A DNA stretch of 64,000 nucleotides from a virus. A program made the translations under genes and the position numbers. Positions 6,443-57,016 of the stretch are shown here, piece after piece; within the stretch, counting starts at the first letter, position 1, and the number at the start of each line of letters is the position of its first letter. The notes beneath the pieces were generated by a model. That model saw only the letters and a program-made list of their open reading frames with translations, was not told the DNA's origin and made no database searches. The stretch lies in the IMG/VR virus record IMGVR_UViG_3300031088_000001; one strand, 5' to 3'.

Positions 6443-6457
6443 CTCAATTTATTGAGT
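6442..6457. promoter_or_regulatory. 16-bp perfect palindrome ACTCAATTTATTGAGT
   Basis: Begins at the stop codon of 5885-6442 in a 36-nt intergenic gap. It has no T-tract, so it looks more like an operator or protein-binding site than a terminator. Confidence 0.35.
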
Positions 6458-6478
6458 GCCAACACTGGAGTATCGAAC

Positions 6479-32111: not shown

Positions 32112-32162
32112 GTTCGTTACCTGTGCGAAAACCCGCAGCACGGTCAGCACTGCGGGTCCTGG

Positions 32163-32561: not shown

Positions 32562-32572
32562 GTTGCACGCTC

Positions 32573-32875
32573 CTACTTATCCTCGTTCCAGTTGCGCACA
32601 GCATCGTCCAAACTCTTGTCGGGAGTGACGGGCTTTGGAGCCAGGGTCTGTTCGATCTGCGTGTGTTGGTCCTTTATCACGACCTGCTGTTGCTCCAGGT
32701 CTTTGACGTTTTCATCCGCCTTGGTCATATCTGGTGGAGGTGGAGCAGTCACAGTTGAGCTACTACCACCCTTGGGAAAGGCGCGCACAACAACCGCTAC
32801 TGCCACCCCGAGCAGCAAAGCTCCCAACCACTTGAGCCACTTCACGGAAGAAGTCAACGCACCTTTAACGTCCAT
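32573..32875 (-). CDS. single-pass membrane protein (antiholin, i-spanin-like, or unknown)
   Basis: N-terminal TM WLGALLLGVAVAVVVRAF followed by a Pro-rich and charged segment. Confidence 0.55.
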   Translation of the reverse strand: MDVKGALTSSVKWLKWLGALLLGVAVAVVVRAFPKGGSSSTVTAPPPPDMTKADENVKDLEQQQVVIKDQHTQIEQTLAPKPVTPDKSLDDAVRNWNEDK

Positions 32876-39161: not shown

Positions 39162-39395
39162 AAGCACCTACTTGCATGGATTGGTGCGTTGTTGGGATTG
39201 ACCATTACGCAGTGTTGAAATTACACCACCTGCTTGAACTTAGGGAAAGACCCATGTGGTAATACGGCACCGCACACAACCAAGAATGTGATCTTCAAGT
39301 AGTGCAGACTCCAAATCCGCAGTTCAAACGTTCTCCGGTCTAGTTACAAGACAGGGCGCGAAGCGTGGTACAAATATCGGCAGTGTGATTACCTA

Positions 39396-40850: not shown

Positions 40851-40862
40851 GTTTTTGTCCCT

Positions 40863-40900
40863 AAATGAAAAAGGGTCGGCAGCCGTGAGACTACCAACCC
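40863..40900 (-). terminator. intrinsic terminator (- strand)
   Basis: On the - strand, GGGTTGG-14 nt-CCGACCC is followed by TTTTTCATTT, directly after the stop of 40906-41436. Confidence 0.55.
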
Positions 40901-40905
40901 TGGTA

Positions 40906-41436
40906 TTACGCTGCGGCTGTGACGTAGCAGCAGGCTGGCTCACTTACTTGTCCATAAGCATTGACCATTCGGTAGCTGAACGAGTCATTGCCCGTGAAGC
41001 CATTACTGACATACGACATACGCCGACCATCGTTGCTCACACGCGCTACACCATTCTGTGGTTGCCCCAAAATCTGAGGCCAGAACGGTATGGACGTGAC
41101 GAACGAGTTACCTTCTGCCTGTACCATGTTGCTGGTGACGTTGATCGTGGTGTCTTCAAACGGAAGGATTTCCGAGTAGACGCGCACAATGTAGTCCCCA
41201 GGTTCCCGTACAACCAGCTTCCCATCCTCGAAGTAATACTCAGGGAAGAATCCCTCTTCGCGGTTGAGCGTGATCCCGTCAAGCGTGAACACGTCGAACA
41301 TATTGCGGTTGATCGGTACCATGACCAGATAGTCGGTGAACGACGTGTCCTGATAGCTGACACTGCGCGCCTTTACAAGCCCGCGCAGATTTGCCGTGAT
41401 GGGTTTGGCGTAGCGGAATTGACTTTGAGTAATCAT
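40906..41436 (-). CDS. structural protein with a C-terminal Ig/cadherin-like segment
   Basis: VSNDGRRMSYVSNGFTGNDSFSYRMVNAYGQVSEPA resembles bacterial Ig-like / VCBS repeats (..G.D.F.Y...D..G..S..A). Confidence 0.55.
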   Translation of the reverse strand: MITQSQFRYAKPITANLRGLVKARSVSYQDTSFTDYLVMVPINRNMFDVFTLDGITLNREEGFFPEYYFEDGKLVVREPGDYIVRVYSEILPFEDTTINVTSNMVQAEGNSFVTSIPFWPQILGQPQNGVARVSNDGRRMSYVSNGFTGNDSFSYRMVNAYGQVSEPACCYVTAAA

Positions 41437-44390
41437 CAGCCACCTCTCACATAGCCGAAACGTTTCTTGAACTCAGGCTGCGTGACAGGGCACGACGCGG
41501 CGACAGCTACTGGCAAGGTGACGAAAATCCACTTGCCGTCGATCTGACGATACTCCACTTCCAGCTCAAGTCCCAACGTGGCGACGTAAGCCTCAGCCTG
41601 TGCTTGTGTTGCAAACACACCGCGCGATTCGTCGGCCATGGTGTAGCTATTACGCTTCGGCGTCTCGAACGACGGTGCGGCTTTGGCCACTTCCTTGATC
41701 GAAGACACGTTGCGCACGTAAGCCATGGGTTGCTCAGAACGAGTGAGCGCTTGACGCCGCTCATACGCAGTGTTTACACCATAGACAACACGCGACGGAC
41801 GCATAACGAAGCTCAGCGACACCTCGATGCGCTTGTTGTTCGGACGCAGACCCTCGATGAAAGGCATCGGGGAGAACGCCTGACCAAGCGTGTGATGACG
41901 CTGGTAGATCGCATCAACAAAACTCACTGGGTAGCGATAGAACTTGTCCACACCCATAGTGAATTGCCACGCACGGCTCACTTGCGGCTGTTCCCAAACA
42001 GTATCCAGATACATCGGAGCGTTCAGGTGATCCAGCTTGATCTCCATGTCGCGGTACATCGGAGCCTTGGCGGCATAGCGATAGTACGCGAGCGGGCGAT
42101 ACCGTGGAGTGCTCAGCGGAGTCTGCTTGTACGTCAATGGTGAATACTGCGGCGCGTTCAGGTGATTAAGCCTGAAGTTGTCCTTCACGTCGATCTGTAC
42201 CAGCTTGACTGTAGCCACATCGCGGCTGAACTCAGACTGGGTGTATACCGTCTTGCCGAGATAGGAGCGGTTGGCGTCCCAGGCACTGAACAGTATCAGC
42301 TTATCCCAATGCGTGCGCTGGGCTTCGGCTTCTGCCTGCACCTTAAGCACTGTCTGGGAAGGTAGGCGATCCGCAGTCTGGAGTTGCGACTTGGCAAATT
42401 GCGACTTGGTAAGTACAGGTGACGGCACAGCGTTGAGCTTGATGATGCGAGTCTTGTCGCACACTGGCGAGTACCCATCAGCGCTCAGCACTGTAGGTTG
42501 CGTGCTTACATCAGGCTCGTCGGCAGTCCAGCTCTGCACCGAGTTGCTATCGTACCAATCACCGACAAGCGGCTCATTACTCACACGCTCTGGCGGCTCG
42601 TACACAACGGTCAAACCACGAGGCACATCGACCACGTTCTCTTCCCAGACCAATGCACCGTTAAGCTGCATCATCAGGATTGTCCACGTCGCCACAGGTT
42701 TGTCGTACACGGTGTTGATGGTGTACGCAATACGCTGCGCCAAGAGGCTTACTGGGGTGGCGTGAACCACAACAATGTCACCGTTCTTGATCGTGCCTGT
42801 CTTACCGAAGTCACCCCCGTTGACGCTGAACTCGATGATGGATTCATCGGTGTCAATGTCCACGCTGAACCCGTCAGTCATACCTTCGACAGCGAAGAGG
42901 TCCTCGTATTGCACGCGCGGCAGAGCATCGTTCACTTGGTCAAGCGTGCTCAACGTTGGGAACAGCTTCGGCTCGGTGCGCAACTGGAACGTGGTTGCCC
43001 GACGGCCCATGAACGTGACCGCTTGCGCATCGTAGTACGACGCCCGTGCCGGTACGCTGATCTTTACCACGTCGTCTTTCTTCAGGTAACCCGAAGTCCA
43101 CGGAAGACCGTTGACCGTGACCGTCGCGTTCGTGGTGCCGAGCTTGACAAACTCTGGGCGAACCCAGTTGACTGTCCACGTGTACTCATACGCGGCGTTG
43201 TACGGCACGTTCTCCACGATGGTCTGCACAGGGCTGACGTTCGCTTCCGCAGAGGTGACGTCCGCAGCATCCGAATACAGGTCGGTGACAACAACCTCGC
43301 CCATGTAAGCAGCACCAGCCGACCGCACAGTGGTAGCGACGTCGGTCGCATTACCAAGTGTTTGGTCATACTTGATGATGCCAGTGGTGTCGAGGAAGGA
43401 CACGTAGATTTCACTGCGGTAGACCACTACGTCCAGAGGAACCTTGGAGTAGTAGACCGTCTTCTCCAGTGCCTTGGAGTTGCGGTTGATAAGCAGCAAA
43501 CAGCGGTTCGTTGCGTCAACCACATAGACGTATACATCGTTCAGGTCCATGTCGAAGTACAAACCTGGGCGAGCCAGAATCTGCGTCACGGTGAACGAAC
43601 CTGCAACCCGCGCAACTGTGGTGATACCCGAAGCCATGCCCAGATAGAGCAGGCCAGAGTTGTCGCACACAATCGAGGTCAAGCCTGTGAACGTGCCAGT
43701 CTGGGTATACAGCAGCGCGCCCGCGTTGCTCCAGACTTCGATACGGTCAGCGAAGCCGATGACAATGTTGCCTTCCATGTCGCCAGTGGCAGCCAGAGGC
43801 GTACCAGTCAGCGTGTAGGACGAGTCAACGGCGAACAGGTTGGTGAGTTTGTACAGCTTGCCAGCAGTGACTACCCAAGGCACGGCAGCAACGTTGTCAG
43901 CTTCGCTCCAGATAGGAGAAAAGGTGATCGCGACAGGTGTTTCCGCAAAGGTGAGTTTCTTCACCTCGTCGGCAGTGTTGAAGAACCAGATTTCCTTCTT
44001 GGCGTAGTCGATGGATGCGACTGCATCGGCAACGGTGAAGGTTCCGGTGGCTGCGTAGGACAGTTGCTTGCTCGACCCTGGCTTGTACAGCTTGCCATAG
44101 GTAGAGCCGGTGATCGCCTTGTACGCCTGGGTAGTGACGTAACGCAGAGTCTTGGGCAGGTCAACGAACCAGAGGTAAGTCTTCCCGGCGAGAACCACGC
44201 TAATCTCGGCGTATGCAGTCACGGTAGTCGTGAGACGTGCCGTGTCACCTTTCGTAACCTGAATGTCCGTATTCGCAGCGTAGTCTTGGCCCTTGTACGT
44301 GACCACGCAACCCGCTTTCAGAACACCAGTGGCGTCTAGGGTTACGTCTACGTAGGTTGAGCCAGAAGCCAAGCTAACTGGAATAAACAT
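41436..44390 (-). CDS. large baseplate/tail structural protein (984 aa) with a beta-propeller-like region
   Basis: Long ORF in the structural operon. Segments such as VYVYVVDATNRCLLLINRNS and IYVSFLDTTGIIKYD resemble NHL/YVTN-type blades. Confidence 0.6.
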   Translation of the reverse strand: MFIPVSLASGSTYVDVTLDATGVLKAGCVVTYKGQDYAANTDIQVTKGDTARLTTTVTAYAEISVVLAGKTYLWFVDLPKTLRYVTTQAYKAITGSTYGKLYKPGSSKQLSYAATGTFTVADAVASIDYAKKEIWFFNTADEVKKLTFAETPVAITFSPIWSEADNVAAVPWVVTAGKLYKLTNLFAVDSSYTLTGTPLAATGDMEGNIVIGFADRIEVWSNAGALLYTQTGTFTGLTSIVCDNSGLLYLGMASGITTVARVAGSFTVTQILARPGLYFDMDLNDVYVYVVDATNRCLLLINRNSKALEKTVYYSKVPLDVVVYRSEIYVSFLDTTGIIKYDQTLGNATDVATTVRSAGAAYMGEVVVTDLYSDAADVTSAEANVSPVQTIVENVPYNAAYEYTWTVNWVRPEFVKLGTTNATVTVNGLPWTSGYLKKDDVVKISVPARASYYDAQAVTFMGRRATTFQLRTEPKLFPTLSTLDQVNDALPRVQYEDLFAVEGMTDGFSVDIDTDESIIEFSVNGGDFGKTGTIKNGDIVVVHATPVSLLAQRIAYTINTVYDKPVATWTILMMQLNGALVWEENVVDVPRGLTVVYEPPERVSNEPLVGDWYDSNSVQSWTADEPDVSTQPTVLSADGYSPVCDKTRIIKLNAVPSPVLTKSQFAKSQLQTADRLPSQTVLKVQAEAEAQRTHWDKLILFSAWDANRSYLGKTVYTQSEFSRDVATVKLVQIDVKDNFRLNHLNAPQYSPLTYKQTPLSTPRYRPLAYYRYAAKAPMYRDMEIKLDHLNAPMYLDTVWEQPQVSRAWQFTMGVDKFYRYPVSFVDAIYQRHHTLGQAFSPMPFIEGLRPNNKRIEVSLSFVMRPSRVVYGVNTAYERRQALTRSEQPMAYVRNVSSIKEVAKAAPSFETPKRNSYTMADESRGVFATQAQAEAYVATLGLELEVEYRQIDGKWIFVTLPVAVAASCPVTQPEFKKRFGYVRGG

Positions 44391-44403: not shown

Positions 44404-44440
44404 GAAACGAAAAAGGGAGCTAAAGATAGTCTTTAGCCCC
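44404..44440 (-). terminator. intrinsic terminator (- strand)
   Basis: On the - strand, GGGGCTAAAG-ACTAT-CTTTAGCTCCC is followed by TTTTTCGTTT, 15 nt after the stop of 44455-45450. Confidence 0.7.
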
Positions 44441-44454
44441 CAGTGAATGCCGAA

Positions 44455-45450
44455 TTAGACGGCTTCAGGTACACCGCCACCCGACACGAGGAGCAGCAGA
44501 CGCATGCCGGCGTTGTTCGGCTTGTTGGCCTTCATCGCGCGGTAGATACGATCCGAAGTCTCGCCGTAGACGCGAACCGGGATTTCCGATTCTTCGCCGA
44601 TCACGTCAGCCGAGGTGTACGCGAACAGGTCGAGTTCCTCGGTGTAAGCGTAACGGTCGGTGTTCAGACGGTTCGGGAAGGTCACCAGGTACTTGTTACC
44701 CTTGGCGATTGCAACCTGATCCTGGCTGTTCAGGATCGCCGCGCTGTTCACCGAGTCGGCGTCAGCCGGCTTGCTGATGGATGGACGGAAGACGTCCTTC
44801 TCGTTGACAACGAACTTCATCGGGCCCGAGGTATCGCACTCGTAGACCACGAAGATCGGCGAGTTGTCGGTGATCAGGGCGACACCGGTGTCCTTGTTCA
44901 CAGGAACTTGGACGTTGAAGAAGCTGTAACGCGGGTTGGCGTCGGAAGCATCTTCCCAGACGAACAGGGTGATACCGCGTGGGGTGGCTACCAGCAGGTA
45001 GGACAGGGTAGTACCCAGGTCGTAGCCGCTGTTCTGCACGTCACGGTTGATGAAGGTGTCGCCGATCACAGGCTGCGGTTTGGTCCAGGAAGTACCCAGC
45101 TGACCCATGACACGAGTACCATTGATATCTACGCCCGAACCTGGGAACGAGGTGACGGCACCCGCAGTGGTGATCTGCTGTGGGTTGGCAATTGCCATCT
45201 TGATCTTGCCCGCACCAGCAGTAGCGCCCGACAGGTCGAGCAGCAGACGCCATGGTTGGGTTTCGTTCAGTGGGTTGACGCCCGCCGAAGAGTCGAAGAC
45301 GAACTTGCCTGCACCACTGGTGACAGAGAAGTTCTGGCCCGAAGCCGGCAGAACCTGAGTCAGACCCGCGCTTTTCAGGTCGGCGAACAGTGCGGTCGCG
45401 AACTGATCGAGACCTTGCAGTTTGGACTTCTTGTAAATCTTACCAGCCAT
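44455..45450 (-). CDS. virion structural protein of unknown family (331 aa), probably abundant
   Basis: GGAGAAACAAC-ATG start and its own downstream terminator. No family recognised. Confidence 0.65.
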   Translation of the reverse strand: MAGKIYKKSKLQGLDQFATALFADLKSAGLTQVLPASGQNFSVTSGAGKFVFDSSAGVNPLNETQPWRLLLDLSGATAGAGKIKMAIANPQQITTAGAVTSFPGSGVDINGTRVMGQLGTSWTKPQPVIGDTFINRDVQNSGYDLGTTLSYLLVATPRGITLFVWEDASDANPRYSFFNVQVPVNKDTGVALITDNSPIFVVYECDTSGPMKFVVNEKDVFRPSISKPADADSVNSAAILNSQDQVAIAKGNKYLVTFPNRLNTDRYAYTEELDLFAYTSADVIGEESEIPVRVYGETSDRIYRAMKANKPNNAGMRLLLLVSGGGVPEAV

Positions 45451-45462
45451 GTTGTTTCTCCG

Positions 45463-46023
45463 TTACACTGATAGGTAACCACACAAGGTGATCGAAATGT
45501 CCGCAATCGTGGAATCCACGAGGTCCGGAGCTGTGATGATGAGGATGTCGCCACGCTCAACCCGAATTGGGTCGGTCGTAGCAGGAACAAACTCAGCTTC
45601 TTCCACGAAGGCTTTAAAGCGGATAGTGCCTACGGGGATAAACTCCGATTTGCGCGTGATGCCGACGCTAAAGTCTTGCTGCGAACCAGAGGCTTGCAGC
45701 GCATACGCAATGGCACCAGCCAGCGATCCTTGCAGATAGAAAGTCCTGGAAGCGACCACATACAGCACTTTGGCAGAAGGGTCAGGCTTACCGAGTACAG
45801 TACCCGACAAGTCGTAGGACAACGCGCTGTGCGCAGGGTTGCGAAGATTCCAACCCTGATGGAACTCGTAGATTCCCGGGATGAAGTTTCCCGAGACTTC
45901 CGTGAGTTCCCACAGCGAGCCGTCTGTAGGACTCGAAGGGAACTGAGGCCCTCGGCGCGCATCGTCGAGCATCTGAATAGAGAGGCCCGAACCGGCGACA
46001 AGTTGCAATCCGTCAGCGATCAT
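45463..46023 (-). CDS. structural hypothetical protein (186 aa)
   Basis: Internal ATG 46023 after AGGAG. TAATG overlap with the upstream stop. Confidence 0.6.
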   Translation of the reverse strand: MIADGLQLVAGSGLSIQMLDDARRGPQFPSSPTDGSLWELTEVSGNFIPGIYEFHQGWNLRNPAHSALSYDLSGTVLGKPDPSAKVLYVVASRTFYLQGSLAGAIAYALQASGSQQDFSVGITRKSEFIPVGTIRFKAFVEEAEFVPATTDPIRVERGDILIITAPDLVDSTIADISITLCGYLSV

Positions 46024-46235
46024 TAGGCTACTCCTGCTCGGCCCGCACGCGGGACTGACCACTCGATGTGACACTCAGTCAGAGATACAGGCTTGACAGC
46101 CTTCGGCAGGATCTTTTGAACCACGCCGTCAATCTCCACATACGCATCCACCACTGGGGCTCTGGTGAATAAATTATGCCGAACAATCCAGGTGGAAGCC
46201 GGCTCTAGTTGCTGGTGCTCGTAACGGACACTCAT
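46023..46235 (-). CDS. small protein consisting of one copy of the shared W-x-[IV]-x-H-x-L domain
   Basis: MSVRYEHQQLEPASTWIVRHNLFTRAPVVDAYV...IEWSVPRAGRAGVA. ATGA overlap upstream. Confidence 0.6.
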   Translation of the reverse strand: MSVRYEHQQLEPASTWIVRHNLFTRAPVVDAYVEIDGVVQKILPKAVKPVSLTECHIEWSVPRAGRAGVA

Positions 46236-46831
46236 ATGCACCGCGCCTTGCCCGTGACTGGGCTATTGAAAGTTGCGGTTGCAGAGAGCATATCCTCCGA
46301 GTGAACAAGCGTCACTGGTTGGATTTCCATGTTCCCGACGAAGCAGCGGATGATCGGCGTATAGCCCAGCTGGTGGTTGATGACCCACACTTGCTGATCC
46401 TGGAAGTTCTGCTCGTATGCGACTTGCGCACGCGGCAGTCCTTCGGTGGCACCCATGATGAGGATGGCACGACCTGCTTGCGGTTGAGCGAAGCTGATTG
46501 TGGCGTGGTTGAATTTGAAGTCAACCTCGTCGAACTCAATCGCCTTGTTGTCACCACTGACTACCTGAACGATACACCCTGCGGTCTGCAGGGCGTGGTC
46601 GATTTCCCAAGTGGCCGAAGCTACAAACTGGTCATGGACGTGAGTCTGTAGTTCGGTACTCATAGGCAGCCAAGCTGGCACGCCATTCGCAATCTCCAAG
46701 CAGATAAAAATCCGCCGGTTCATGAAAATGAACGTGCCCGGTTTCGGTTCAGACGGCCAAGATTCAACGGGTTCCAACGTTACGTTCTTCAGGAGGTTGC
46801 CCTGAAGATCGAAGTGGCCGTTGATTTTCAT
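46232..46831 (-). CDS. fibre-associated protein with two copies of the W-x-[IV]-x-H-x-L domain
   Basis: The N-terminus MKINGHFDLQGNLLKNVTLEPVESWPSEPKPGTFIF resembles that of 46844-48538. The domain copies contain ATWEIDHAL and QVWVINHQL. Confidence 0.65.
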   Translation of the reverse strand: MKINGHFDLQGNLLKNVTLEPVESWPSEPKPGTFIFMNRRIFICLEIANGVPAWLPMSTELQTHVHDQFVASATWEIDHALQTAGCIVQVVSGDNKAIEFDEVDFKFNHATISFAQPQAGRAILIMGATEGLPRAQVAYEQNFQDQQVWVINHQLGYTPIIRCFVGNMEIQPVTLVHSEDMLSATATFNSPVTGKARCI

Positions 46832-46843
46832 GAAGCCTCCTGA

Positions 46844-48538
46844 TTATGCCGCTACCTTCTTGCCGTTGATGACGATGTACACCTTCTGAGCAACGGCCAG
46901 AGTGACGACCAGGTTATTGGCGTCAGTCAGGGTAACGTTGTCAGGCAGAATCTGCGTGAAGGTTTCGTCGTATACGGCGACAGTTGCCCAACGGTAGTTC
47001 AGACCGTGGTTGATGCTGTAGGTGTCCTGTGCAGCACCAGTGGTGCCGTCGAACACTACTTGGCTTGCACCGGCGCCAGCTTCCAGCGTGTCGATGCGGT
47101 CAGCCAGAGGGCCAGTGATATCGGTCACCGACTTGCGGTTCGCGATGCTGTTGTCGCCAGCCGGAGCAGGAACAGTGACGTCGCCAGTAACAGCGCCGCC
47201 TTCTGCAAGGCTCAGGTAGGTATCGCTCAGGTCACCAACTTTCAGACCAGCAGCACCCAGCGACAGGGTAGCGCCGTCGAGCTTGACGCTCAGCGCAGTA
47301 CCGGCACCGCCTTGCAGACCGTTACCCAGTGCAGCGGCAGCGATGGTACGAGCAGTCACGCCTTCGTCAGCGATGGACACACCGTCAGCCGAAACGGCCA
47401 GGCCGCTGGAGGCTTTCAGTTTCAGTGCCAGCACAGCGTCTTCTTCGGTCGAAGCAGCGCCAGAGGTCGGATCAACCAGAGCCAGACCGCCAGTAGTACC
47501 AACGTCGATACCGACTTCACCGTCAGGCAGGTTGGTCACACCAGCACCGAACTTGACGCTGATGGTGTTGCCTTCTTTCAACAGGCCAGCCGAAACAGTG
47601 ACGCCGCTCAGGCCGCCATGCTCGCTCCAGTTGGTACCGTTGAACTTCATGAACTTGACAGCGTTGCGGTCCCAGACCAGGACGCCAGGACCACGCTCGC
47701 TCACGTCGTACACGACTTTGAAGCTGGCGCCGTCCTTCTGAACAATGTCACCATCTTCCAGACCGGCGATGGTGCCGAAGCCCGAGTCGAGTGCGTCTGC
47801 ATCGGTGATGATATAGCGAACAGCGTTGTCAGGCAGAGTGTTGCTCAGGTCAGGGATGGTGCTGGCGTCAACCTGAGTAGCCAGAACGTCCGCTTGGAAG
47901 TCCAGGTCAGCTTTCAGGTTGTCAATGTCGATCAGACGAACAGGGTCAGTCGGATCAACTGGAGCAGCCAGGTTCTTCGCGGTGTTGGTGCCGCCGAAGT
48001 TCAGGTTGCCGTTGATGGCATCGCCAGCCTTGTTCAGCGGGGTGAAGCCCAACTCAGCTTGTTTGCCGTCGATCTGGCCCTGAATGGCAGAAGTGACGCC
48101 ATCCAGGTAGCCCAGTTCTTCGACGTTGACAGTCGCGCTGCCAGTGATCTTACCGTCAGCATCGGACACGACAACAACGCTTGGAGCCAGGTCCAGAGTT
48201 GCAACGGTCGATGCAGCACCGGTGATTTCATCCTGCTTGGCACCCAGACCATCGGTCAGTTGCTTGAAGCTGGCAGGGTTCAGGTCTTCGGTGCCTGGGC
48301 CACTCAGGATCAGAGGGCCGGTCAGGGTACCGCCGTCGAGCGACAGGTAGTTGTCGAGATTGCCACCGGAGGCGACGGTCAGGACCTCTTCACCATCGTA
48401 CCAGCGCAGAGCTTTGTCGGTGGTGTTGACCCAAACCAGACCTACCTTCAGGTCTTCGGCTGCCGGATCACTGGTGAGACGCTGCGGCTTGAGGCCACGA
48501 ATCTCACCAAGCAGGGTGAGGTTACCATTTTTCAGCAT
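46844..48538 (-). CDS. tail fibre protein (564 aa)
   Basis: Fibre-type motifs LSLDGGTLTGPL and GYLDGVTSAIQGQIDGK, with Ala/Gly/Thr/Val-rich repetitive beta sequence. GGAG SD. Confidence 0.75.
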   Translation of the reverse strand: MLKNGNLTLLGEIRGLKPQRLTSDPAAEDLKVGLVWVNTTDKALRWYDGEEVLTVASGGNLDNYLSLDGGTLTGPLILSGPGTEDLNPASFKQLTDGLGAKQDEITGAASTVATLDLAPSVVVVSDADGKITGSATVNVEELGYLDGVTSAIQGQIDGKQAELGFTPLNKAGDAINGNLNFGGTNTAKNLAAPVDPTDPVRLIDIDNLKADLDFQADVLATQVDASTIPDLSNTLPDNAVRYIITDADALDSGFGTIAGLEDGDIVQKDGASFKVVYDVSERGPGVLVWDRNAVKFMKFNGTNWSEHGGLSGVTVSAGLLKEGNTISVKFGAGVTNLPDGEVGIDVGTTGGLALVDPTSGAASTEEDAVLALKLKASSGLAVSADGVSIADEGVTARTIAAAALGNGLQGGAGTALSVKLDGATLSLGAAGLKVGDLSDTYLSLAEGGAVTGDVTVPAPAGDNSIANRKSVTDITGPLADRIDTLEAGAGASQVVFDGTTGAAQDTYSINHGLNYRWATVAVYDETFTQILPDNVTLTDANNLVVTLAVAQKVYIVINGKKVAA

Positions 48539-48553
48539 GAAAATACTCCAGGA

Positions 48554-49345
48554 TCAGGAAGCGATCTCTACGATTTGGATACGAGGGTTGGATTGCAGCT
48601 CGGTGAGCAACCTCCCAAGAGGCTGATCGCCAACGACAACTCCGTTCTTCAACGCAATATCGTCATCCGTGTAGTTTTTGATGACCACTGGGACAACGAT
48701 ATCAGGTAGCAAGACCTTGTCGAGGTAATGCGTGAGTCGTTCCTTGACGATGAAGATGTTGGTCTTCTTGTAATACTCAAGGTCGTCCACGCCGATGTAC
48801 GTGATCAGGCTATCAACCTGACTTCGGTTCGACGTGATCGTCTTGGGCACCAAGTTGGAACCAAGCAGGCAGTCGACCTCGTAGAGTTCAAACAGGGTCG
48901 ACTGCAATGCTCCTACTAAGGCCTCGATGATCTTCGGATAGGCCTCAAGGTGCGACATACCCACAGTAGCACGGACCCGACGCTTGAAGTTGTTCGGGAT
49001 GTGCTTATGCACCGCGCCCCATACCTCAAGGAACTGAGGCAGGAACACGTCGCTGTGGATTTTGAAGATGTGCTTGTTCGAGTTGATAATCTCACCAAAA
49101 CGCTGGAAGATTATCTGGATGTCCGATTCATCCACGGTGTTGCGATTGAGCAGCAGGCTTTCCACCTTGGTAGCCCAGTCAGAGTAGCTGTTGAAGAACA
49201 GCAACTGGATTTCGCGGGCGACCTGGCTAAACTGCTTCCGTTCGTCGATCAACTCAGTCAGGATGAATGACTTGGAGTTGTAGTAGCGCTCCAAAGCCTT
49301 AGAACTCACAGAACGAAAGCGTATGTTGTTAAGCACGTAGGCCAT
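48554..49345 (-). CDS. hypothetical cytoplasmic protein (263 aa), first gene of the lower-GC insert
   Basis: K/N/I/F/Y-rich composition. Sampled rows give about 43-58% GC, versus about 58-65% in the flanking fibre genes. Confidence 0.6.
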   Translation of the reverse strand: MAYVLNNIRFRSVSSKALERYYNSKSFILTELIDERKQFSQVAREIQLLFFNSYSDWATKVESLLLNRNTVDESDIQIIFQRFGEIINSNKHIFKIHSDVFLPQFLEVWGAVHKHIPNNFKRRVRATVGMSHLEAYPKIIEALVGALQSTLFELYEVDCLLGSNLVPKTITSNRSQVDSLITYIGVDDLEYYKKTNIFIVKERLTHYLDKVLLPDIVVPVVIKNYTDDDIALKNGVVVGDQPLGRLLTELQSNPRIQIVEIAS

Positions 49346-49356
49346 GGGTGCAATTC

Positions 49357-49911
49357 CTACAAACCTCTGTTCTGCATGGTCTTGGCTATGGACATGCCAG
49401 TGAGTACGCCGGCGACTTGCGATTGCTTGTCGCTGATTTCAGCAACCTGACGAGCCAGAGACTCAAGCAGGCGGCTGAGGCGTTCGACTTCTCGCTGGAT
49501 GTTATCATTCTTACGACCAATGTCCTCAGAGGAATTGTCAAGTGTCGAGTCGAGTTTGCGCAGTGCGTCCTGCACCTCGTGGAAGACCTTTTCAAGGCTC
49601 CCGCTCAACAGGGTTGATTGTTGCTCGACGGCCGCACGCAATTGCGCGACCACGTTCACTAACTCGGTGATGTTCTGCTGGCTCTGCAGGCTAGTCGTTA
49701 GCTCCTGCATGAACTTCTGGACGTTCGCCTTTTGCAGGTCAAACTCATCACCCATTCTCTTTTGAAGCTCCGTGTTTGCAGCACGAAGCAGCTTCATTTC
49801 CTCTTGCTGAGGAATGACGAAGAACCAATAGCCAGCCAAGCACGCAATGGCGATCACTGCCGCAATCGCAACCGGCAGGGGGCTACTGAAAATGGTTTGT
49901 ATGGCGTCCAT
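49357..49911 (-). CDS. membrane-anchored coiled-coil protein (184 aa)
   Basis: N-terminal TM LPVAIAAVIAIACLAGYWFFVI followed by a long heptad-like region. Confidence 0.6.
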   Translation of the reverse strand: MDAIQTIFSSPLPVAIAAVIAIACLAGYWFFVIPQQEEMKLLRAANTELQKRMGDEFDLQKANVQKFMQELTTSLQSQQNITELVNVVAQLRAAVEQQSTLLSGSLEKVFHEVQDALRKLDSTLDNSSEDIGRKNDNIQREVERLSRLLESLARQVAEISDKQSQVAGVLTGMSIAKTMQNRGL

Positions 49912-49920
49912 TGAGCAGCC

Positions 49921-50202
49921 TCATTGGCATTTGTCATCGCTCGGTATCACTCGGATTGTCTTGATGTTAGGACTCTCCGGATCGGACTCAATCAGGATTT
50001 CTGACACACGAGGCTCAGTCATGGAGCACAGGTCTCCAGTCGTAGGACTCTCGGTGCAAACGGAACGCACGCAGGCGAGTGTTGAATAGACCACGGACTC
50101 TCGACTTGGATTGCGGTAACCGTACGTCCAGAGAACGTAAAGCATTGCCGCGACCAGGACGAGTATCAGTACCCTAGAAATCCGTGAATGGTTGATTACC
50201 AT
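49921..50202 (-). CDS. small single-pass membrane protein with four Cys (93 aa)
   Basis: N-terminal TM VLILVLVAAMLYVLWTY. Cys residues occur in the extracytoplasmic part. Confidence 0.55.
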   Translation of the reverse strand: MVINHSRISRVLILVLVAAMLYVLWTYGYRNPSRESVVYSTLACVRSVCTESPTTGDLCSMTEPRVSEILIESDPESPNIKTIRVIPSDDKCQ

Positions 50203-51056
50203 TAGCCTCCCTCCACGATATCAAATTTCCCCATCGACTTCCTGTACAACGAAAGCCAGCTGGGCTTGGACTTGAGTCGTGACAGGTTGGCACACGAGCT
50301 GATGTGGAGGTTTAGTGGTTTGTTGTACGACGCTATTGCGAGTGACGCCGCTTCTTTTGGAGTTGGGCCAACCGCCAGCGCAGTCTTAAACCCGCTACGG
50401 CAGATGCCGACGTCAATGTGGCGCCTGTTCGTAGCTACCATGATCTTCTCTAGCTCGGCGTATCCGACCGTATTGTTCCATTCATCTTTCAGTCCGAAGA
50501 CGTTCATCACGATTGTGCCGACGGCTTCTTTCTGGAGATCGAGCAACAACTTGCGGTATTCAAGTACGGTGTTTACGATGTGGATTTCCACGTCCAGTCC
50601 TTCCAGACGAGTTTTTAACTCGGTCAGGCGTAGCGTTGCGAGCGCTGAACTGTCCGTGACGATGTAGGTCTTTGCCCACTTTTCGTTGTAACTGCTGGCA
50701 GCCTTGAGGGCTACCGTGTTGAAGCTGTCTGCACCGATAAGCACCGAGCTGTACTTCGATGGGAAGCCAGTATCGAACTCAGGTTCACCGAGATAGAGAA
50801 TCAAACTCGGCTTGCTGCGCTCGACAGCGGCTTTCAGTACGCGCTTCAAACTCTCCCTGGAGTACGCGGAAGTGTCGTAGGTAAACCGACGGGCGTTGAA
50901 CACGAAGATGTGAGGCTCGCGCTCGACTGCAAGGAGTTGGGCTACAATGGAGTTACCATACAGATCGTGAACCGTTGCGGACTGCACAACCAGTAGGCTT
51001 TGGGCATCTACCGTTAGGCAGTAAATTAGCGAGGCAAGTGCCCAGAGCCCTTTCAT
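50202..51056 (-). CDS. secreted/periplasmic protein (284 aa) with a possible periplasmic-binding-protein-like alpha/beta fold
   Basis: Sec-type signal MKGLWALASLIYCLTVDAQS. Alternating beta-alpha pattern. No family recognised with confidence. Confidence 0.6.
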   Translation of the reverse strand: MKGLWALASLIYCLTVDAQSLLVVQSATVHDLYGNSIVAQLLAVEREPHIFVFNARRFTYDTSAYSRESLKRVLKAAVERSKPSLILYLGEPEFDTGFPSKYSSVLIGADSFNTVALKAASSYNEKWAKTYIVTDSSALATLRLTELKTRLEGLDVEIHIVNTVLEYRKLLLDLQKEAVGTIVMNVFGLKDEWNNTVGYAELEKIMVATNRRHIDVGICRSGFKTALAVGPTPKEAASLAIASYNKPLNLHISSCANLSRLKSKPSWLSLYRKSMGKFDIVEGG

Positions 51057-51061
51057 GGTGT

Positions 51062-51898
51062 TTACCTTATGCCAATGATCGCCGCAGTGCCGGAGCGTGG
51101 AGCGGCGAATGTGATGCGGACATTGTTGCCGTCCAGAGGGATTTGCTCAGCGGGAATCATGTAATCCCCGTTGGGCAACGCGACTGCGATGATGAGGTTC
51201 TCAGTACCTAGGTCGTGAGCGATCAGCCACTCCAGGTCCTCATCTTCCTGCGTGTGCAGAAACTTTGGAACACCGTCACCGCCGCCAAGCTCAAGGGCTT
51301 TCACCTTGTTCTCAACGGTAGTTGTACGGGTACCCAGGGCACGCACCGAGTTGCGCACACTGGTAAGCTGTTGGTACACGGATGCTGCGAGCGACTGAGC
51401 AGCGGACGTCAGCTTCTCAACGAACGAACGAGGCACGGCTTCATCAGCCGCGTAGTCCTCGCTTGTTCCAAGAGTGCGTGGGTACACAGGCCCAGTGAAG
51501 CGGCCGCCAGTTGCATCGAATGCACCCAGGTCGAATGCCGTCAAGTCGTGCGTGTTGCCGATGTTGCGATTCAGTTCTTGGAAGTCCTGATCGCTAGGAC
51601 GAGGCTCGTCCCACATCTGCGCGTTCCAGAAGTTGGACTCCGTTGCCGCAGTCCACGTATGCGTGTGGTTTGCACTCGCACCGCGGTTGACACGGCGCAG
51701 TGCCGTTGACGTACTCGGGTCGATCCAGATGAGGTCCAGTGGAGCCACGACTTCAATCGGCTCCACCTTGCTCACGATGATGTTGATGCGGGTTTTGCTT
51801 GGCCCGTCTGTGGTAAGCAGCACGGGATTAGAGTCAGTCAGGCCTCGGACTTGCGCTGCCTGAATGAGTCTTGCAATCGGCAGGACCATGGGATTCAC
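51062..51898 (-). CDS. tail-fibre-like protein (278 aa) ending in the W-x-[IV]-x-H-x-L domain
   Basis: GGRFTGPVY fibre motif, a coiled segment, and C-terminus LEWLIAHDLGTENLIIAVALPNGDY...RITFAAPRSGTAAIIGIR. Confidence 0.65.
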   Translation of the reverse strand: MNPMVLPIARLIQAAQVRGLTDSNPVLLTTDGPSKTRINIIVSKVEPIEVVAPLDLIWIDPSTSTALRRVNRGASANHTHTWTAATESNFWNAQMWDEPRPSDQDFQELNRNIGNTHDLTAFDLGAFDATGGRFTGPVYPRTLGTSEDYAADEAVPRSFVEKLTSAAQSLAASVYQQLTSVRNSVRALGTRTTTVENKVKALELGGGDGVPKFLHTQEDEDLEWLIAHDLGTENLIIAVALPNGDYMIPAEQIPLDGNNVRITFAAPRSGTAAIIGIR

Positions 51899-52378: not shown

Positions 52379-53188
52379 TTAAGGAGCGTCGCTGCCAATG
52401 ACGAAGTAGTAGAAGTCCCAGCCGGTGGCAGCCACAGGTTGAGTCCCGCCAGCACCATCGCTCTCTTGTGCAAGCAGCGAGGTGTCCACGGAAAGCTCTG
52501 CGTTACCCTTGTTCACCCGATCAATCCGCACAGCGTTCTTGACGTTGCTCTTCGGGTTAATGAACTGGATGTGCATTGTCCGAGGCTTGTCGGTGATGAA
52601 CGACTCTGGGAAGATCACGCGCTGGAAAAGCGCAGCCTCGGTCGACGTGAAGCGGCCCCAGCACTTCAAGCTGAGGTTGTCGAATCGCTCGTAGGCATCG
52701 ACTTCACCCACGCCGAACGTTGGCGTCTTACCATCTTGCCCTGCTGGGCCAGTCGGACCGGTGGGACCCGTCGGGCCAGTAGCGCCCTGAACACCGGGAC
52801 CACCACTCGAACCTGCAGGACCGGTTGCACCCTGAGGACCCGGATCACCTTTGGGGCCAACGCAACCCTGATCGCCGACACGGCCGTCTTTACCGTTACG
52901 ACCGTTCGAGCCGGGTTTGCCTTGAGGGCCAGTGGGACCCGTAGGCCCCACTCCCACCGACTGCGTTGTAAGGAAGCCACGGATCAGCAGCGTACTGCGA
53001 TCCGCGCGGTTGAGAACGAGTGAGCCCGTCTCCGAGTCATAATCACCGGAGACGATTGTGGTATCACCGTTCAGATTCTCGTCATCCTGAAGCTCCAGCT
53101 CATTGCCGTTGAACTTCACAATGTCGTTGGTATCACCCGTGCCCGGATCGAGCAGCGGCAATGGCACCCTGGTCAGTCTACCAGTCAT
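52379..53188 (-). CDS. collagen-like (G-X-Y) fibre protein A
   Basis: About 28 uninterrupted G-X-Y triplets (GVGPTGPTGPQGKPGSNGRNGKDG...) containing GCVGPKG. The N-terminal domain ...GDYDSETGSLVLNRADRSTLLIRGF is shared with the paralogs. Confidence 0.85.
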   Translation of the reverse strand: MTGRLTRVPLPLLDPGTGDTNDIVKFNGNELELQDDENLNGDTTIVSGDYDSETGSLVLNRADRSTLLIRGFLTTQSVGVGPTGPTGPQGKPGSNGRNGKDGRVGDQGCVGPKGDPGPQGATGPAGSSGGPGVQGATGPTGPTGPTGPAGQDGKTPTFGVGEVDAYERFDNLSLKCWGRFTSTEAALFQRVIFPESFITDKPRTMHIQFINPKSNVKNAVRIDRVNKGNAELSVDTSLLAQESDGAGGTQPVAATGWDFYYFVIGSDAP

Positions 53189-53195
53189 AGTCTTC

Positions 53196-53366
53196 TCACT
53201 TCACGTTGAGCCATTTGGTGTTGTCCGAGGAGCGCACCTTGGTGTTGAGCGGGTTCATCTGAATCCACGACTTGTTGTCGCTCGCCCTGACTTTCCAACC
53301 CAGCTTGTCAAAGTTTTGAATCCACGGGTCGCTAACGGACTGTCGAACACGGAGTCTGACTGCCAT
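53196..53366 (-). CDS. small protein made of three Trp-containing repeats (56 aa)
   Basis: Internal ATG with TAATG overlap. Repeats VRQSVSDPWIQNF, VRASDNKSWIQMN and VRSSDNTKWLNVK. GC3 is about 77%. Confidence 0.6.
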   Translation of the reverse strand: MAVRLRVRQSVSDPWIQNFDKLGWKVRASDNKSWIQMNPLNTKVRSSDNTKWLNVK

Positions 53367-56300
53367 TATCCGATCTCCCCAATGCTGTTGGCTTGACCTT
53401 TCCAATCTGCTGCTTTGGTCAGGTACTGGACTTGGTTGTTGTAGCGCACGCTGAATCCAGCATAGCCAGGCGTACAGTTCGGGATGTTCTTGTATCGCAG
53501 GATCACGTTGCGAGTCCCCGCGCGTACATCCACAGTGAGTGTTGCCACGCCAATTGGACCAGAGCCCACCTTCTTACAGTCAATGTACAACTCATAGTCA
53601 TCGTCCGAGATAACGGTGATAACGTGCGAGCCGCTGTACGTGAACGGGATGAAGGCTTGCATCAGGTACATGACGTTGCCAGCAGCGCAATCGAAGTTTG
53701 GCTGCACGTGCAGGAGATTGCAGCCATCAGGACCACCAGCGCGCTCGAACACTTGCTCGCTTGGGTTCTGGTTGCAGATCGCGCTGTCGTCATCCATGAT
53801 CGTGCCGAAGCCACCAGACTTGGTGATGTTACCCTTCGACGCATTGCCGATGGTCATGCCCACGGTGCGATCAGGTTGCTGCACGTCGTTACCGAAGACT
53901 GGGACACAGACCTGCTTGGAAGTCTCACCCGGTGCGAACGTCACGGTACCCGATGTTGGCTGATAGTCACGCTCCTCAACCTTGATGCGCAGTGCACCTT
54001 CACTACCGCCTGCAGGAATCTTCTCGCAGTGCAGACCATCCCACGCTTGGTGATCGCCCCACGCAGTAATCATGGCAGCTACGCTGATAGCACTACGATC
54101 CACTGAGCCGTAGAACTCCATCCCGAACAGGTTAGCCAACTGGTTGGCACCAGACTCGAAGACGTAGTGGTCAGTGATGACAACAAGGCCACCACCGCGC
54201 TTAGCGTATTCGGCGAAGTTGGCTACCGAACCCTCCTTCAAGATACCTTCAGCCGCTACACCAGTTGCTGTCACCCGCGAACCCATGAAGATGATGGTGT
54301 CATACGTCAGGAGCTCAGCCAGTGGGATAGCACCCACAGAGTTCCACGCGTACACGTCTTTCATCACAGGCGTGAAGCCAGCAGCCGTGACAGTGCCCGG
54401 CAAGCTGATCCCGAACCCGTTGGGCTGACTGTCGAGCGTGTAGTTCCCACCAGTCGCGTTGTCGCAGGTAATCAACACCTTGCCTGTGCGATTGTTGGTG
54501 CGCGCAGTCCACTGGATCAAGTTCTTCAGGTAGGTGAATGCAGGCGGCAGACCAATGCCAGACACGAACACGGAGCTGAACGTGGCGTTTGCTTGCGACT
54601 GGGCACAGAAGCCCCAGCTGGTCTGGCCTGTGAATGCGCTCAGGTCAGCATCTGCACTCAGGTCCACTTCGATCTTGGTGCCTTCATCCAGTGCAACCGA
54701 ACCAAAGGGTGAGCAGTAGATCGTGATGATGTTGCAGTCACGCTCAACCCGCACACGGGTCTGCCCACGACCATTCCAGTTCCCGTTGCCGCCAGAAGTC
54801 TTCGTGGCGAGCACCTTAGTAGGTACACCGTTGACAAGCAGCGTCAGATTGAAGTTACCACTGCCATAACCTCCCATGCCACCGGGTACACGCGATGCAA
54901 CCAGATGGTAGTTGTCAGCACCAACACGGGCGAACGCAGCTACCAAGCCGATCATATCGTCATCCGCCTCGCCAGACGACAGCGTGGCCTCAAACGTGTA
55001 GCTCATGTACGACAGCGGCGAACAGAACGAAATCATCTTGGAACTGTTCGTGGTCGACTGGATGTTCCCGCTCGACAACCGCCATGCAGTAGCTTGCGAT
55101 GCAGCAGGGATTGTGGTAGGGTCCGAGTAATACTCGTCGCCTGCCGTCCGCCACCACGAGTCGAATACGGCCTGACCAGTAGGTGCATCCTGCGGCGCCC
55201 TGTAGGCATTGTTGTAGAACTTGGGGAACCCGCCATCGAATGCTGCACGACCAACGCCACAGTCCGCGACTGCGATAAAGGGGTTGTTGAACTCGTCGTT
55301 CGCCAGAATCCGGCCTTGGCAGATGAAGGGCTTAGCAGTACCGCCACCCGATTGGTAATCGACAGTCACAGGCATGGACTGCGGCTTATCCATAGTCACG
55401 GTCCAGCAGAGTTGAGCAGTCTCACCCTCCTTACCTTCCTTGACAATCGGATCGTCGATGCTGATGTTTGGATCCTCATCACCCGGGCACGTATGCAGGA
55501 ACGACCACGAGGTCTTACCGCTACCTGTTACCCGAATCTGAATCTTCTGGCCACCAGCGGGGTTGTAGTTGAAGTACAGCCAGTGATCGCCAGTAACAGG
55601 CCCACCAGTCGTCGCAACCAACGTACCGCCTTGATAGACGTCCAGCTTATCGGGGATGTTGTACATCTGGTAACGCACACCCACCTTACCAGCATTCGGA
55701 CCCATATCGACATAGGTGTCAGTAACGCCAGCACCACCAGAAGTCACGGCGCTCTGATCCGAACACGGCCGTGGGTCATCTTCACTGCCCTTCTCGCCCG
55801 GACAGGTGATCAGGTAAATCCACGAGGTCCCAGGGTCCCGTGCAGTGATGCGCACCATGACAAGCTGCGATTCACTAGGCGAATAGTCAAACTTCACATG
55901 GCCTTCGCCTGCCACGTATCCGCCAGTAGACTTGAGCAACCGTCCGTCTTGGAATACTTCGAGCTTATCCGGCTGGTTCCACATCTGGTAGTGTATGTCT
56001 ACCAAGCCAGCCTTATCACCCATGGCGTGATAGAACTCAAACGTTCCCAACCCGCCTTCTTTCTTCACCTCGAACGTACCGTGGCATGGACGTGGATCAG
56101 TGATTTCACCGTCCGTATCGTCGTCACCCACGCACTTCATCTGGAGCGTCCACTTCGACGCCTTAGTAGCACGTACACGGACAAACACCAGTGGGTCGTT
56201 ATTCACAGGTGTGAACACGAACTGCAATACGCCTTTGCCAGTACGCTGCCCACCAGTGGATGCAATGACCTTGCCACGGTAGTACACATCGACACTAACA

Positions 56301-57016
56301 GCACCAGCGTTCGCCATCCATGGCATACGCACTGCACCGCCTTCCTTGCCCATGTTCAGGTAGAACTCCCAGATACCCTTACCGCTACCATTGATAGCAC
56401 TTGGGCACTCGAATGGGCAATCAAACCCACCAGCGATCTTTGTACCGCAGTCCATGTCCGGACGGATAATGAGGACACCCTTCTCCTCACAGACACCCAG
56501 TCCGGGACGGTAGATACACGAGCCCTTGTCGCCCGCTCCATCACCATCGCTATCTGGCAGATCATAGCCACCTGGATATGGTGCTCCTTCCTGCCATCCA
56601 GAGCCGCCTTGGCCGGATCCCTTATCCCCATTATTGTACCAAGGGCTGCCAGGACCGTTCAAACCGCCTCCTATTCCGCCCGACCCAGACCCAGGGTCCG
56701 TGCCGTTACCGCCCGCCCCTCCGTTGCCTCCATTGCCACCTGTTCCACCGCCGGAGCCGTTACCACCACCTGAACCATTGCTGCCCTTACCGTCCGGTGT
56801 GCCGCCGTACTCATCCTCAGTGTCACAACTGGCTAGGCCTTCCGCCTTGCAATCAATGTCCAGCCAATAGGTCTCAGCACCATGGCGAACCTTCATGCCC
56901 TGTGCAGGAGTGATGCGTGTCCAGCCTGTGTTGCTTGGATTGCGCACCCGCCATTCACTCTGGCAGATATCCAACCACTTGGTGTTGGCCGCATTCCTGA
57001 TTCTTAGTCTACTCAT
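53366..57016 (-). CDS. giant multidomain adhesin-like fibre protein (1216 aa)
   Basis: N-terminal Trp repeats, a Gly/Asn/Ser-rich linker, three copies of a roughly 100-aa beta-sandwich repeat (F.FY..MG...G.V...YQM.N.PDKL.V.Q.G), Calx-beta-like segments (GTVTFAPGETSKQVCVPVFGND), and a PA14-like C-terminus (VISDDDYELYIDCKKVG). Confidence 0.8.
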   Translation of the reverse strand: MSRLRIRNAANTKWLDICQSEWRVRNPSNTGWTRITPAQGMKVRHGAETYWLDIDCKAEGLASCDTEDEYGGTPDGKGSNGSGGGNGSGGGTGGNGGNGGAGGNGTDPGSGSGGIGGGLNGPGSPWYNNGDKGSGQGGSGWQEGAPYPGGYDLPDSDGDGAGDKGSCIYRPGLGVCEEKGVLIIRPDMDCGTKIAGGFDCPFECPSAINGSGKGIWEFYLNMGKEGGAVRMPWMANAGAVSVDVYYRGKVIASTGGQRTGKGVLQFVFTPVNNDPLVFVRVRATKASKWTLQMKCVGDDDTDGEITDPRPCHGTFEVKKEGGLGTFEFYHAMGDKAGLVDIHYQMWNQPDKLEVFQDGRLLKSTGGYVAGEGHVKFDYSPSESQLVMVRITARDPGTSWIYLITCPGEKGSEDDPRPCSDQSAVTSGGAGVTDTYVDMGPNAGKVGVRYQMYNIPDKLDVYQGGTLVATTGGPVTGDHWLYFNYNPAGGQKIQIRVTGSGKTSWSFLHTCPGDEDPNISIDDPIVKEGKEGETAQLCWTVTMDKPQSMPVTVDYQSGGGTAKPFICQGRILANDEFNNPFIAVADCGVGRAAFDGGFPKFYNNAYRAPQDAPTGQAVFDSWWRTAGDEYYSDPTTIPAASQATAWRLSSGNIQSTTNSSKMISFCSPLSYMSYTFEATLSSGEADDDMIGLVAAFARVGADNYHLVASRVPGGMGGYGSGNFNLTLLVNGVPTKVLATKTSGGNGNWNGRGQTRVRVERDCNIITIYCSPFGSVALDEGTKIEVDLSADADLSAFTGQTSWGFCAQSQANATFSSVFVSGIGLPPAFTYLKNLIQWTARTNNRTGKVLITCDNATGGNYTLDSQPNGFGISLPGTVTAAGFTPVMKDVYAWNSVGAIPLAELLTYDTIIFMGSRVTATGVAAEGILKEGSVANFAEYAKRGGGLVVITDHYVFESGANQLANLFGMEFYGSVDRSAISVAAMITAWGDHQAWDGLHCEKIPAGGSEGALRIKVEERDYQPTSGTVTFAPGETSKQVCVPVFGNDVQQPDRTVGMTIGNASKGNITKSGGFGTIMDDDSAICNQNPSEQVFERAGGPDGCNLLHVQPNFDCAAGNVMYLMQAFIPFTYSGSHVITVISDDDYELYIDCKKVGSGPIGVATLTVDVRAGTRNVILRYKNIPNCTPGYAGFSVRYNNQVQYLTKAADWKGQANSIGEIG

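Follow-up and report, generated by a model that had tools for sequence, protein, structure and literature searches.

The window analysed here is the whole 64,000-nt stretch of IMG/VR virus record IMGVR_UViG_3300031088_000001, in which four consecutive minus-strand genes at 48554–51056, designated g1 to g4 and regarded as a tentative candidate for a lysis-related module, form a cassette between two tail-fibre genes. The gene g1 (48554–49345) encodes a protein of 263 aa, g2 (49357–49911) one of 184 aa, g3 (49921–50202) one of 93 aa and g4 (50202–51056) one of 284 aa. Fibre A (46844–48538, minus strand, 564 aa; phrog_16122, 2e-159) lies downstream of g1, while fibre B (51062–51898, minus strand, 275–278 aa), a fibre-like protein for which the ATG at 51889 is the likelier start, lies upstream of g4. 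As reported in a first-pass annotation made from the sequence alone, the four open reading frames (ORFs) are spaced by 11 nt and 9 nt and then overlap by 1 nt; this tight linkage, which had been read as a sign of one functional unit, is shared by its borders, where fibre B and g4 are 5 nt apart and g1 and fibre A 15 nt apart. The only megablast match to the 46–53 kb region is Pseudomonas jumbo phage PaBG (Baikalvirus; 74% identity), and the window is assigned from its sequence to an uncultured PaBG-like jumbo myovirus. The g1 protein is found in identical form on two IMG/VR contigs.

The cassette had been described as a lower-GC insert acquired horizontally. Its GC content is 52.3%, against 55.5% for the whole window, placing it at the 3rd percentile among 2.5-kb windows, and the hand counts behind the description are close to the computed values, with 60-nt rows averaging 52.3% in the cassette (43–60%), 59.0% in fibre A and 57.9% in fibre B. 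The dip, however, is located in codon positions 1 and 2 only and thus reflects amino-acid composition, not synonymous sites: GC at the third codon position (GC3) is normal, at 0.716, 0.659, 0.574 and 0.653 for g1 to g4, 0.653 and 0.656 for the two fibre genes and 0.646 for the mean of the window genes. The Karlin codon bias B of g1, g2 and g4 (0.28–0.30) is likewise ordinary, that of fibre A being higher (0.47). The reported shift towards K, N, I, F and Y stands in comparison with the fibres (24.4% in the cassette, 18.2% in the fibres), but the cassette value is near that of the other window genes (21–22%), while Gly, Ala and Pro make up 26.5% of the fibres and 14.2% of the cassette. The GC contrast between cassette and fibres reflects protein composition and owes as much to the Gly/Ala/Pro-rich fibres. 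The lowest-GC stretch of the window is found elsewhere, at 38200–41500 (about 50.5% over 2.5 kb, below the cassette), and includes gene 39396–40850 (GC 0.504).

Horizontal acquisition is rejected on two grounds, the normal composition at synonymous sites and the synteny of the block across relatives. The PaBG genome encodes the same four genes in the same order (gp230–233, corresponding to PaBG_00256–00253), and this order recurs in more distant contigs, in phage Lu11 and in Erwinia phage Y3. Using one hidden Markov model (HMM) per gene, the colinear block g4-g3-g2-g1-fibre A was identified in 19 of the 22 g1-bearing loci; two more jumbo contigs, reached via a distant g4 subfamily, share the block, giving 21 of 24 loci, some of which are one phage fetched twice. 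The block-bearing clades comprise PaBG, Lu11, Erwinia Y3/Alexandra and metagenomic clades, with synteny holding down to about 25% identity, and phage NCTB has neighbour genes of matching sizes. By tblastn, g1 is present in 71 isolated-phage records, including Pseudomonas phages PaBG, Lu11 and HRDY3, Erwinia phages Y3, Alexandra, Yoloswag and the SNUABM series, Dickeya phages JA and AD1, a Yersinia phage, Vibrio phages and Ralstonia phage RsoM2USA. Among the relatives examined, none lacks the cassette with both fibre genes directly joined, the arrangement to be expected around a recent insert.

Outside phages, a pattern-seeded search of 185,579 species genomes of bacteria and archaea (GTDB), which very distant relatives could escape, returned no relatives of g1 or g4. 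Scans of the four proteins against Pfam, NCBIfam, PADLOC and PHROGs gave no family assignment, PADLOC returning nothing for g1, g3 and g4 and only coiled-coil noise for g2, and searches of PDB sequences with single sequences and profiles of the cassette proteins gave no identification. A bacterial or defence-island origin, one of the possibilities raised earlier, is rejected on the empty GTDB scans and the PADLOC result, while the earlier statement that the cassette matches no described system is borne out by these searches and by Foldseek. The four genes thus appear, as judged from sequence comparison, to be an ancient, vertically inherited and phage-only module, not a foreign insert. Within 44.4–54 kb, promoter- and terminator-like sites are no more frequent than expected from shuffled sequence, the promoter scan being of sigma-70 type only. 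The sole strong intrinsic-terminator-like hairpin in 44–54 kb, at 44415–44441 on the minus strand, has a 12-bp stem and a T-run, lies just after gene 44455–45450 and probably marks the end of a long late transcription unit containing the cassette.

The g4 protein carries a canonical Sec signal peptide (MKGLWALASLIYCLTVDA, directly preceding QS), which is present in 48 of 51 family representatives and consists of a K/R n-region, a hydrophobic core and an AxA-type site just before the conserved LxVVQS; there is no other hydrophobic segment, and g4 is predicted to be exported to the periplasm by Sec. The family comprises 58 representatives, all from phage contigs (exhaustive HMMER search; a profile word-search added one sequence, and single-sequence seeds for the distant g4 subfamily added nothing), and Pfam gave nothing consistent in 19 close and 10 distant members. 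The PaBG and Lu11 clades share two conserved cysteines, Cys219 and Cys255. Beyond the signal the body is of alpha/beta (Rossmann-like) character: the AlphaFold2 (AF2) model, built from a 19-sequence alignment, is weak (pLDDT 55) and has a confident beta-alpha-beta core at residues 120–210. With this model Foldseek retrieved mostly type-I periplasmic-binding folds, all at E≥6e-3 and none at E≤0.001, and a broad g4 profile matched only designed Rossmann proteins among PDB sequences. Of the earlier description of g4 the signal peptide is thus upheld, while the periplasmic-binding-like fold stays a guess: g4 shares with type-I periplasmic binding proteins (LIVBP/LacI-like) the signal peptide and the alternating beta-alpha pattern, but it has no significant hit, no Pfam family and no transporter genes nearby.

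The g3 protein contains one transmembrane (TM) helix preceded by K/R and four invariant cysteines in 17 of 17 taxa, spaced C-x4-C-x9-C-x29-32-C. It is predicted to be a bitopic inner-membrane protein (N-in/C-out) with an exported four-Cys mini-domain, and the cysteine pattern fits a small disulfide-bonded periplasmic domain. Its sole holin-family match in Pfam, Phage_holin_9, is below the cutoff (E=0.099). Although intact, the gene has been left out of the GenBank and RefSeq annotations of Lu11 (L012, about 6205–6489) and Y3 (L011, 6202–6486), where it fills the apparent gap between the g4 and g2 homologues. The exported proteins are less conserved than g1, with 54–60% identity to PaBG for g3 and g4 against 76% for g1 (mean pairwise identity 0.35 against 0.42).

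The g2 protein contains an N-terminal TM helix (about residues 14–33), a long coiled coil and the conserved C-terminal tail SDKQSQVxGxLxGM...NRGL. Lys and Arg are absent from its short N-tail in nine tabulated homologues, the RsoM2USA homologue having one Lys, and the flank charges lean towards an N-out/C-in topology with a cytoplasmic coiled coil. These charges are suggestive only, as in lambda Rz, too, the C-terminal flank is the more positively charged one, which limits the use of the positive-inside rule for g2. Pfam, NCBIfam and PADLOC gave coiled-coil noise only for g2. The g2-like proteins of phages that carry only g2 and g1 are probably homologous to it, as hhalign aligned the C-terminal 66 columns with a probability of 77% (E=2e-5).

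The g1 protein, the most conserved of the cassette, contains the invariant N-terminal motif NNIRFRS and is represented by 51 clusters in metagenomes. It has neither a TM-grade segment nor an export signal and is predicted to be soluble and cytoplasmic. Its AF2 model (pLDDT 95.4, pTM 0.91) consists of a long-helix bundle (residues 8–161) and a small alpha/beta domain (residues 180–262), in agreement with the soluble helical protein of the first-pass annotation, which also foresaw the envelope targeting of the other three products. No fold match to this model was found in PDB by Foldseek (best E=0.29), and in BFVD it resembles uncharacterised phage proteins only (TM 0.70–0.95). The RefSeq label 'ABC transporter' on the g1 family stems from phrog_19088; the assignment was rejected, as g1 has no ABC hit in Pfam or NCBIfam and its fold is a helix bundle with a small alpha/beta domain. 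This label and 'HNH endonuclease' on fibre B, both found in RefSeq records including those of PaBG, Lu11 and Y3, are likely propagated misannotations. The latter label comes via phrog_24148, and a Pfam scan of fibre B gave nothing to back it. In a re-annotation of PaBG with HHpred, the homologues of g1 to g4 were left without function.

The claim that the four genes act as one unit is supported by their fixed order, close or overlapping spacing and correlated divergence. The g3-g2 and g2-g1 junctions overlap or are at most 15 nt apart in 17 of 17 taxa, and g1 is predicted to be translationally coupled to g2. Pairwise distances of g1, g2 and g4 co-vary (raw Spearman coefficients of 0.87–0.95, without phylogenetic correction; 0.95 for g1 and g4), more than they do with fibre A (0.75–0.81), while g3 correlates with the other cassette genes at 0.72–0.78. 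Within the unit, g3 and g4 were found only together with g2-g1, whereas g2-g1 occurs alone in Vibrio phage pv27, with the stop of g2 overlapping the start of g1, and in several smaller phage contigs; Ralstonia phage RsoM2USA and similar contigs also carry the pair alone, in the order g1 then g2. Because the pair occurs alone in other phages, with the homology found by hhalign, g2-g1 appears to be the older core and g3-g4 an addition in the jumbo lineage.

Lysis genes adjoin the pair in several loci. Locus L034 comprises a GH108 endolysin (Pfam, 1e-24), a GTA-type holin with three TM helices (Pfam at threshold; PHROG holin, 2e-6), the g2-like gene, g1 and a portal gene. In L047, an Rz-like i-spanin (2e-6) and an overlapping 57-aa lipoprotein (lipobox FFLSC) are followed by the g2-like gene, g1 and a GH108 endolysin (4e-22), while L043 contains g1, an Rz-like spanin, a lipoprotein (LFPGC), a phrog_894 endolysin (6e-16) and a portal gene. 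L050 encodes the g2-like protein, g1, one further product and then, on the opposite strand, a protein with GH19 endolysin motifs recognised by eye; Vibrio phage pv27 has the g2-like gene and g1 with a GH19 endolysin 3.5 kb downstream. In the Lu11 clade the whole block g4-g3-g2-g1-fibre A is followed by a small TM protein, a holin-like protein, gp259 and an endolysin. As three unrelated endolysin families are found beside the pair, the link survives cassette shuffling, and the chance of an endolysin lying within 3.5 kb may be put, as a rough estimate assuming one per 100–280-kb genome, at a few per cent. A metagenome scan for more loci yielded one new usable locus. In pv27 (L015, 5100–12200), more than ten small paralogous genes surround g2-g1, with products ending in PEEFI or PEEFL; members of this family lie between g1 and the GH19 endolysin.

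The pair-only cassettes already contain holin, endolysin and spanins, so that g2-g1 would be an extra component. We tentatively identify the pair, with a confidence somewhat short of even, as an accessory lysis factor or regulator which has been extended in jumbo phages by the periplasmic g3 and g4. The genes g4-g3-g2-g1 would be co-transcribed with the late fibre genes, g2, residing in the inner membrane, would bind g1, and together the two may regulate holin triggering or the timing of lysis in the manner of an antiholin. In the PaBG/Lu11/Y3 jumbo lineage the pair would have gained two periplasm-facing partners, g3 and g4, which may feed envelope information, such as superinfection or the state of the envelope, into the lysis decision. 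All four proteins would work in the infected cell and not as virion parts. In a further version, which is possible but doubtful, g1 to g4 form a single inner-membrane complex, with g3 and g4 in the periplasm and, facing the cytoplasm, g1 together with the coiled coil of g2, that senses the envelope state or a secondary infection and sets the moment of lysis; this would represent lysis-inhibition-type control unrelated in sequence and fold to T4 RI/RIII across the jumbo phages of Pseudomonas, Erwinia, Dickeya and Yersinia.

Several observations weigh against a lysis function. None of the four proteins has homology to known holin, antiholin or spanin families, or a match among the PHROG lysis families. 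L034, L043 and L047 have SU10-type portals and are possibly not independent lineages, and the RsoM2USA-like loci have no lysis neighbours. The cassette lies 16 kb from the lysis genes in the window and is also unlinked from them in PaBG, Y3 and the L039/L040 clades. Its invariant place beside fibre A over deep divergence would suit a morphogenetic role too. The orientation of g2 is ambiguous from its charges, so its partner may be g1 or g3/g4, and the g4 model is poor.

The window is predicted to carry a complete lysis cassette of its own at 31183–32875, encoded on the minus strand and identified by tblastn with Lu11 gp257 to gp260 (1e-5, 7e-19, 2e-8 and 3e-23). It comprises a 100-aa TM protein (32573–32875), a holin-like 132-aa multi-TM protein (32163–32561), a lipoprotein of u-spanin type (about 31644–32111; phrog_23384) and a 153-aa endolysin (31183–31644; phrog_894). 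The u-spanin-type ORF contains a lipoprotein signal (MKMVLAVLALSVLTG, directly preceding the C of the lipobox LTG-C) and a C-terminal TM helix, as unimolecular spanins do. Its start is likely MKMVLAV, inside ORF 31644–32150, and the Lu11 homologue gp259, annotated as 87 aa without an N-terminal signal, may be truncated. Just downstream of the endolysin, 29367–30254 and 30378–31175 (minus strand) are adjacent paralogous genes for Gly-rich proteins, both starting with MLTLIP and finishing with GRAFP(N/K)T(K/R)TADI; with inverted codon-position GC (GC2 0.63–0.65, GC3 0.41–0.46), they are compositionally the oddest genes of the window.

Among known systems, T4 lysis inhibition, in which the membrane holin T is acted on by RI from the periplasm and by RIII from the cytoplasm, offers the closest outline. 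The T4 holin gene t directly follows the tail-fibre genes 37–38. Both systems comprise a bitopic membrane protein, a small exported protein anchored by a hydrophobic N-terminus and a soluble cytoplasmic partner, both are expressed late, and g2-g1 occurs in the lysis cassettes of other phages. They differ, however, in that there is no similarity of sequence or fold, g1 is of 263 aa and RIII of 82 aa, and the jumbo-phage module has an extra 284-aa periplasmic protein and, as a separate gene, the multi-TM holin-like gene at 32163–32561. Spanins (lambda Rz/Rz1, T1 gp11) resemble g2 in the i-spanin outline of an N-terminal TM helix and a coiled coil, and the g2-g1 pair of L034 fills the usual spanin slot; g1, however, has no export signal, and no PHROG spanin family matches g2. 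In a search for an o-spanin partner, neither g3 nor g4 had a lipobox, and no frame contained an ORF with one, nor was there an embedded ORF; the g4 signal region contains a Cys, but not a conserved one, and the first g3 Cys is about 18 residues past the TM helix. Spanin identity was rejected, given the lack of a lipobox partner, the u-spanin-type gene elsewhere in the window and the real spanins beside g2-g1 in L047 and L043; as the window has its own u-spanin-type gene, g2 to g4 are not needed as spanins.

The place of g1 directly upstream of fibre A (14–61 nt, in 21 of 24 loci and always so in the jumbo clades) would be explained if g1, tethered to the inner membrane by g2, served fibre A or the baseplate as an assembly factor or chaperone. 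Such a role is rather unlikely, although core-gene-like conservation, a late operon free of internal transcription signals and the presence of fibre A in the same Erwinia, Dickeya, Pseudomonas and Yersinia phages as the full block would all suit it. The pair g1-g2 is encoded by Vibrio, Ralstonia and SU10-portal phages in which fibre A is not detectable (tblastn, E≤1e-3), because of which a chaperone dedicated to fibre A was downgraded; g1, g2 and g4 also co-vary more with each other than with fibre A, and fibre assembly in the cytoplasm would leave the exported g3 and g4 without a role. Known fibre chaperones (T4 gp38/gp57A, Mu/P2 Tfa) are likewise encoded beside a fibre gene, but g1 is located upstream of the fibre gene instead of downstream, persists without fibre A and has membrane and exported proteins as partners. 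No similarity of g1 to Tfa, gp38 or gp57A-type proteins was found by sequence in Pfam or PDB, and its model resembles no solved fibre chaperone. With still lower probability, g2-g1 and g3-g4 are two separate units which are merely adjacent and form no four-part complex; the occurrence of g2-g1 alone in several lineages and the lower g3 correlations agree with this, while the fixed order, the coupling of the genes, the g1-g4 distance correlation and the absence of g3 and g4 apart from the pair do not.

The remaining alternatives place the products elsewhere or give them another origin. Superinfection exclusion or receptor masking, by an envelope complex that blocks DNA entry of sibling phages or re-adsorption of progeny, is distinctly improbable. 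The known exclusion proteins (T4 Imm/Sp, T5 Llp, P1 Sim, HK97 gp15) are likewise made by phages and directed to the infected cell's membrane or periplasm; the genes for Llp and gp15 belong to tail or receptor-binding modules, just as g1 to g4 lie beside fibre genes, and the lower conservation of the exported g3 and g4 would fit host contact. Such proteins, however, are single, small, patchy in distribution and usually early, whereas the present module consists of four genes, is fixed across hosts of different orders and belongs to a late operon without its own promoter; it lacks a lipobox and does not resemble the Imm, Sp, Llp, Sim or Cor-type families, and the g2-g1 pair of smaller phages accompanies lysis genes rather than receptor-binding ones. 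Virion or ejection proteins, with hydrophobic segments that would enter the envelope of a new host, could be encoded inside a structural operon, and published proteomes are too shallow to exclude low-copy components. This is nevertheless very improbable, as the cleavable Sec signal of g4 and the exported Cys domain of g3 would route these proteins away from the cytoplasm, where tailed virions assemble. The homologues are absent from the 14-band list of PaBG and the 10-band list of RsoM2USA, which cover abundant bands only (PMC7412058; PMC8504454), and the record deposited by the Y3 authors labels fibre A, but not Y3_099–101, as 'putative virion protein'; the Lu11 records have no mass-spectrometry marks on genes. 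The reading first proposed, of a recently acquired moron of lower GC or of a cassette for defence or counter-defence inserted between the fibres, has almost nothing in its favour beyond a GC content about 3 points under the window mean and the lack of a match to a known virion part, since neither GC3 nor codon bias deviates, relatives carry the block in synteny, and there are no bacterial homologues, no real PADLOC match and no promoter or terminator of its own.

If g2-g1 is an accessory lysis factor, the module bears on a major fitness trait, as the timing of lysis sets burst size. To our knowledge, little is known of the regulation of lysis timing beyond T4 lysis inhibition and a few antiholins, and nothing for jumbo phages. 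The gene set is phage-only and is encoded by dozens of isolated jumbo phages, several of which are biocontrol candidates against Erwinia, Dickeya and Ralstonia, and it includes g1, with a confident model that matches no solved structure, and g4, a secreted family without annotation. The analysis also corrects the labels 'ABC transporter' and 'HNH endonuclease' and the absence of g3 from the Lu11 and Y3 records. Should the module be morphogenetic instead, a step of tail-fibre assembly linked to the membrane or periplasm would be equally unexpected.

The two flanking fibres had been said to share a C-terminal domain, which is supported at profile level (phrog_21918; 3e-6 for fibre A and 6.5e-8 for fibre B) but not by direct BLASTP (E=0.65). 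The same module is found in ORF 46232–46831 (199 aa), and in related loci the fibre B HMM also matches homologues of the small ORF 46023–46241, giving four module copies within 6 kb. The PaBG homologue of fibre A, gp257, is a Coomassie-visible virion band (PMC7412058). Residues 178–329 of fibre A share 39–41% identity with virion proteins of the Bacillus jumbo phages PBS1, AR9, Goe21 and Internexus, and this fibre domain is thus common to phages of very distant hosts. Gene 52379–53188 (minus strand) encodes a fibre-like protein with a collagen-like Gly-X-Y run (GPTGPTGPQGKPG...), and the N-terminal region of its PaBG homologue is duplicated in a second fibre gene (PaBG locus L001, 398–919; 47% identity). 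Upstream of this gene, 53366–57016 encodes a 1216-aa protein with a long Gly-rich N-terminal region.

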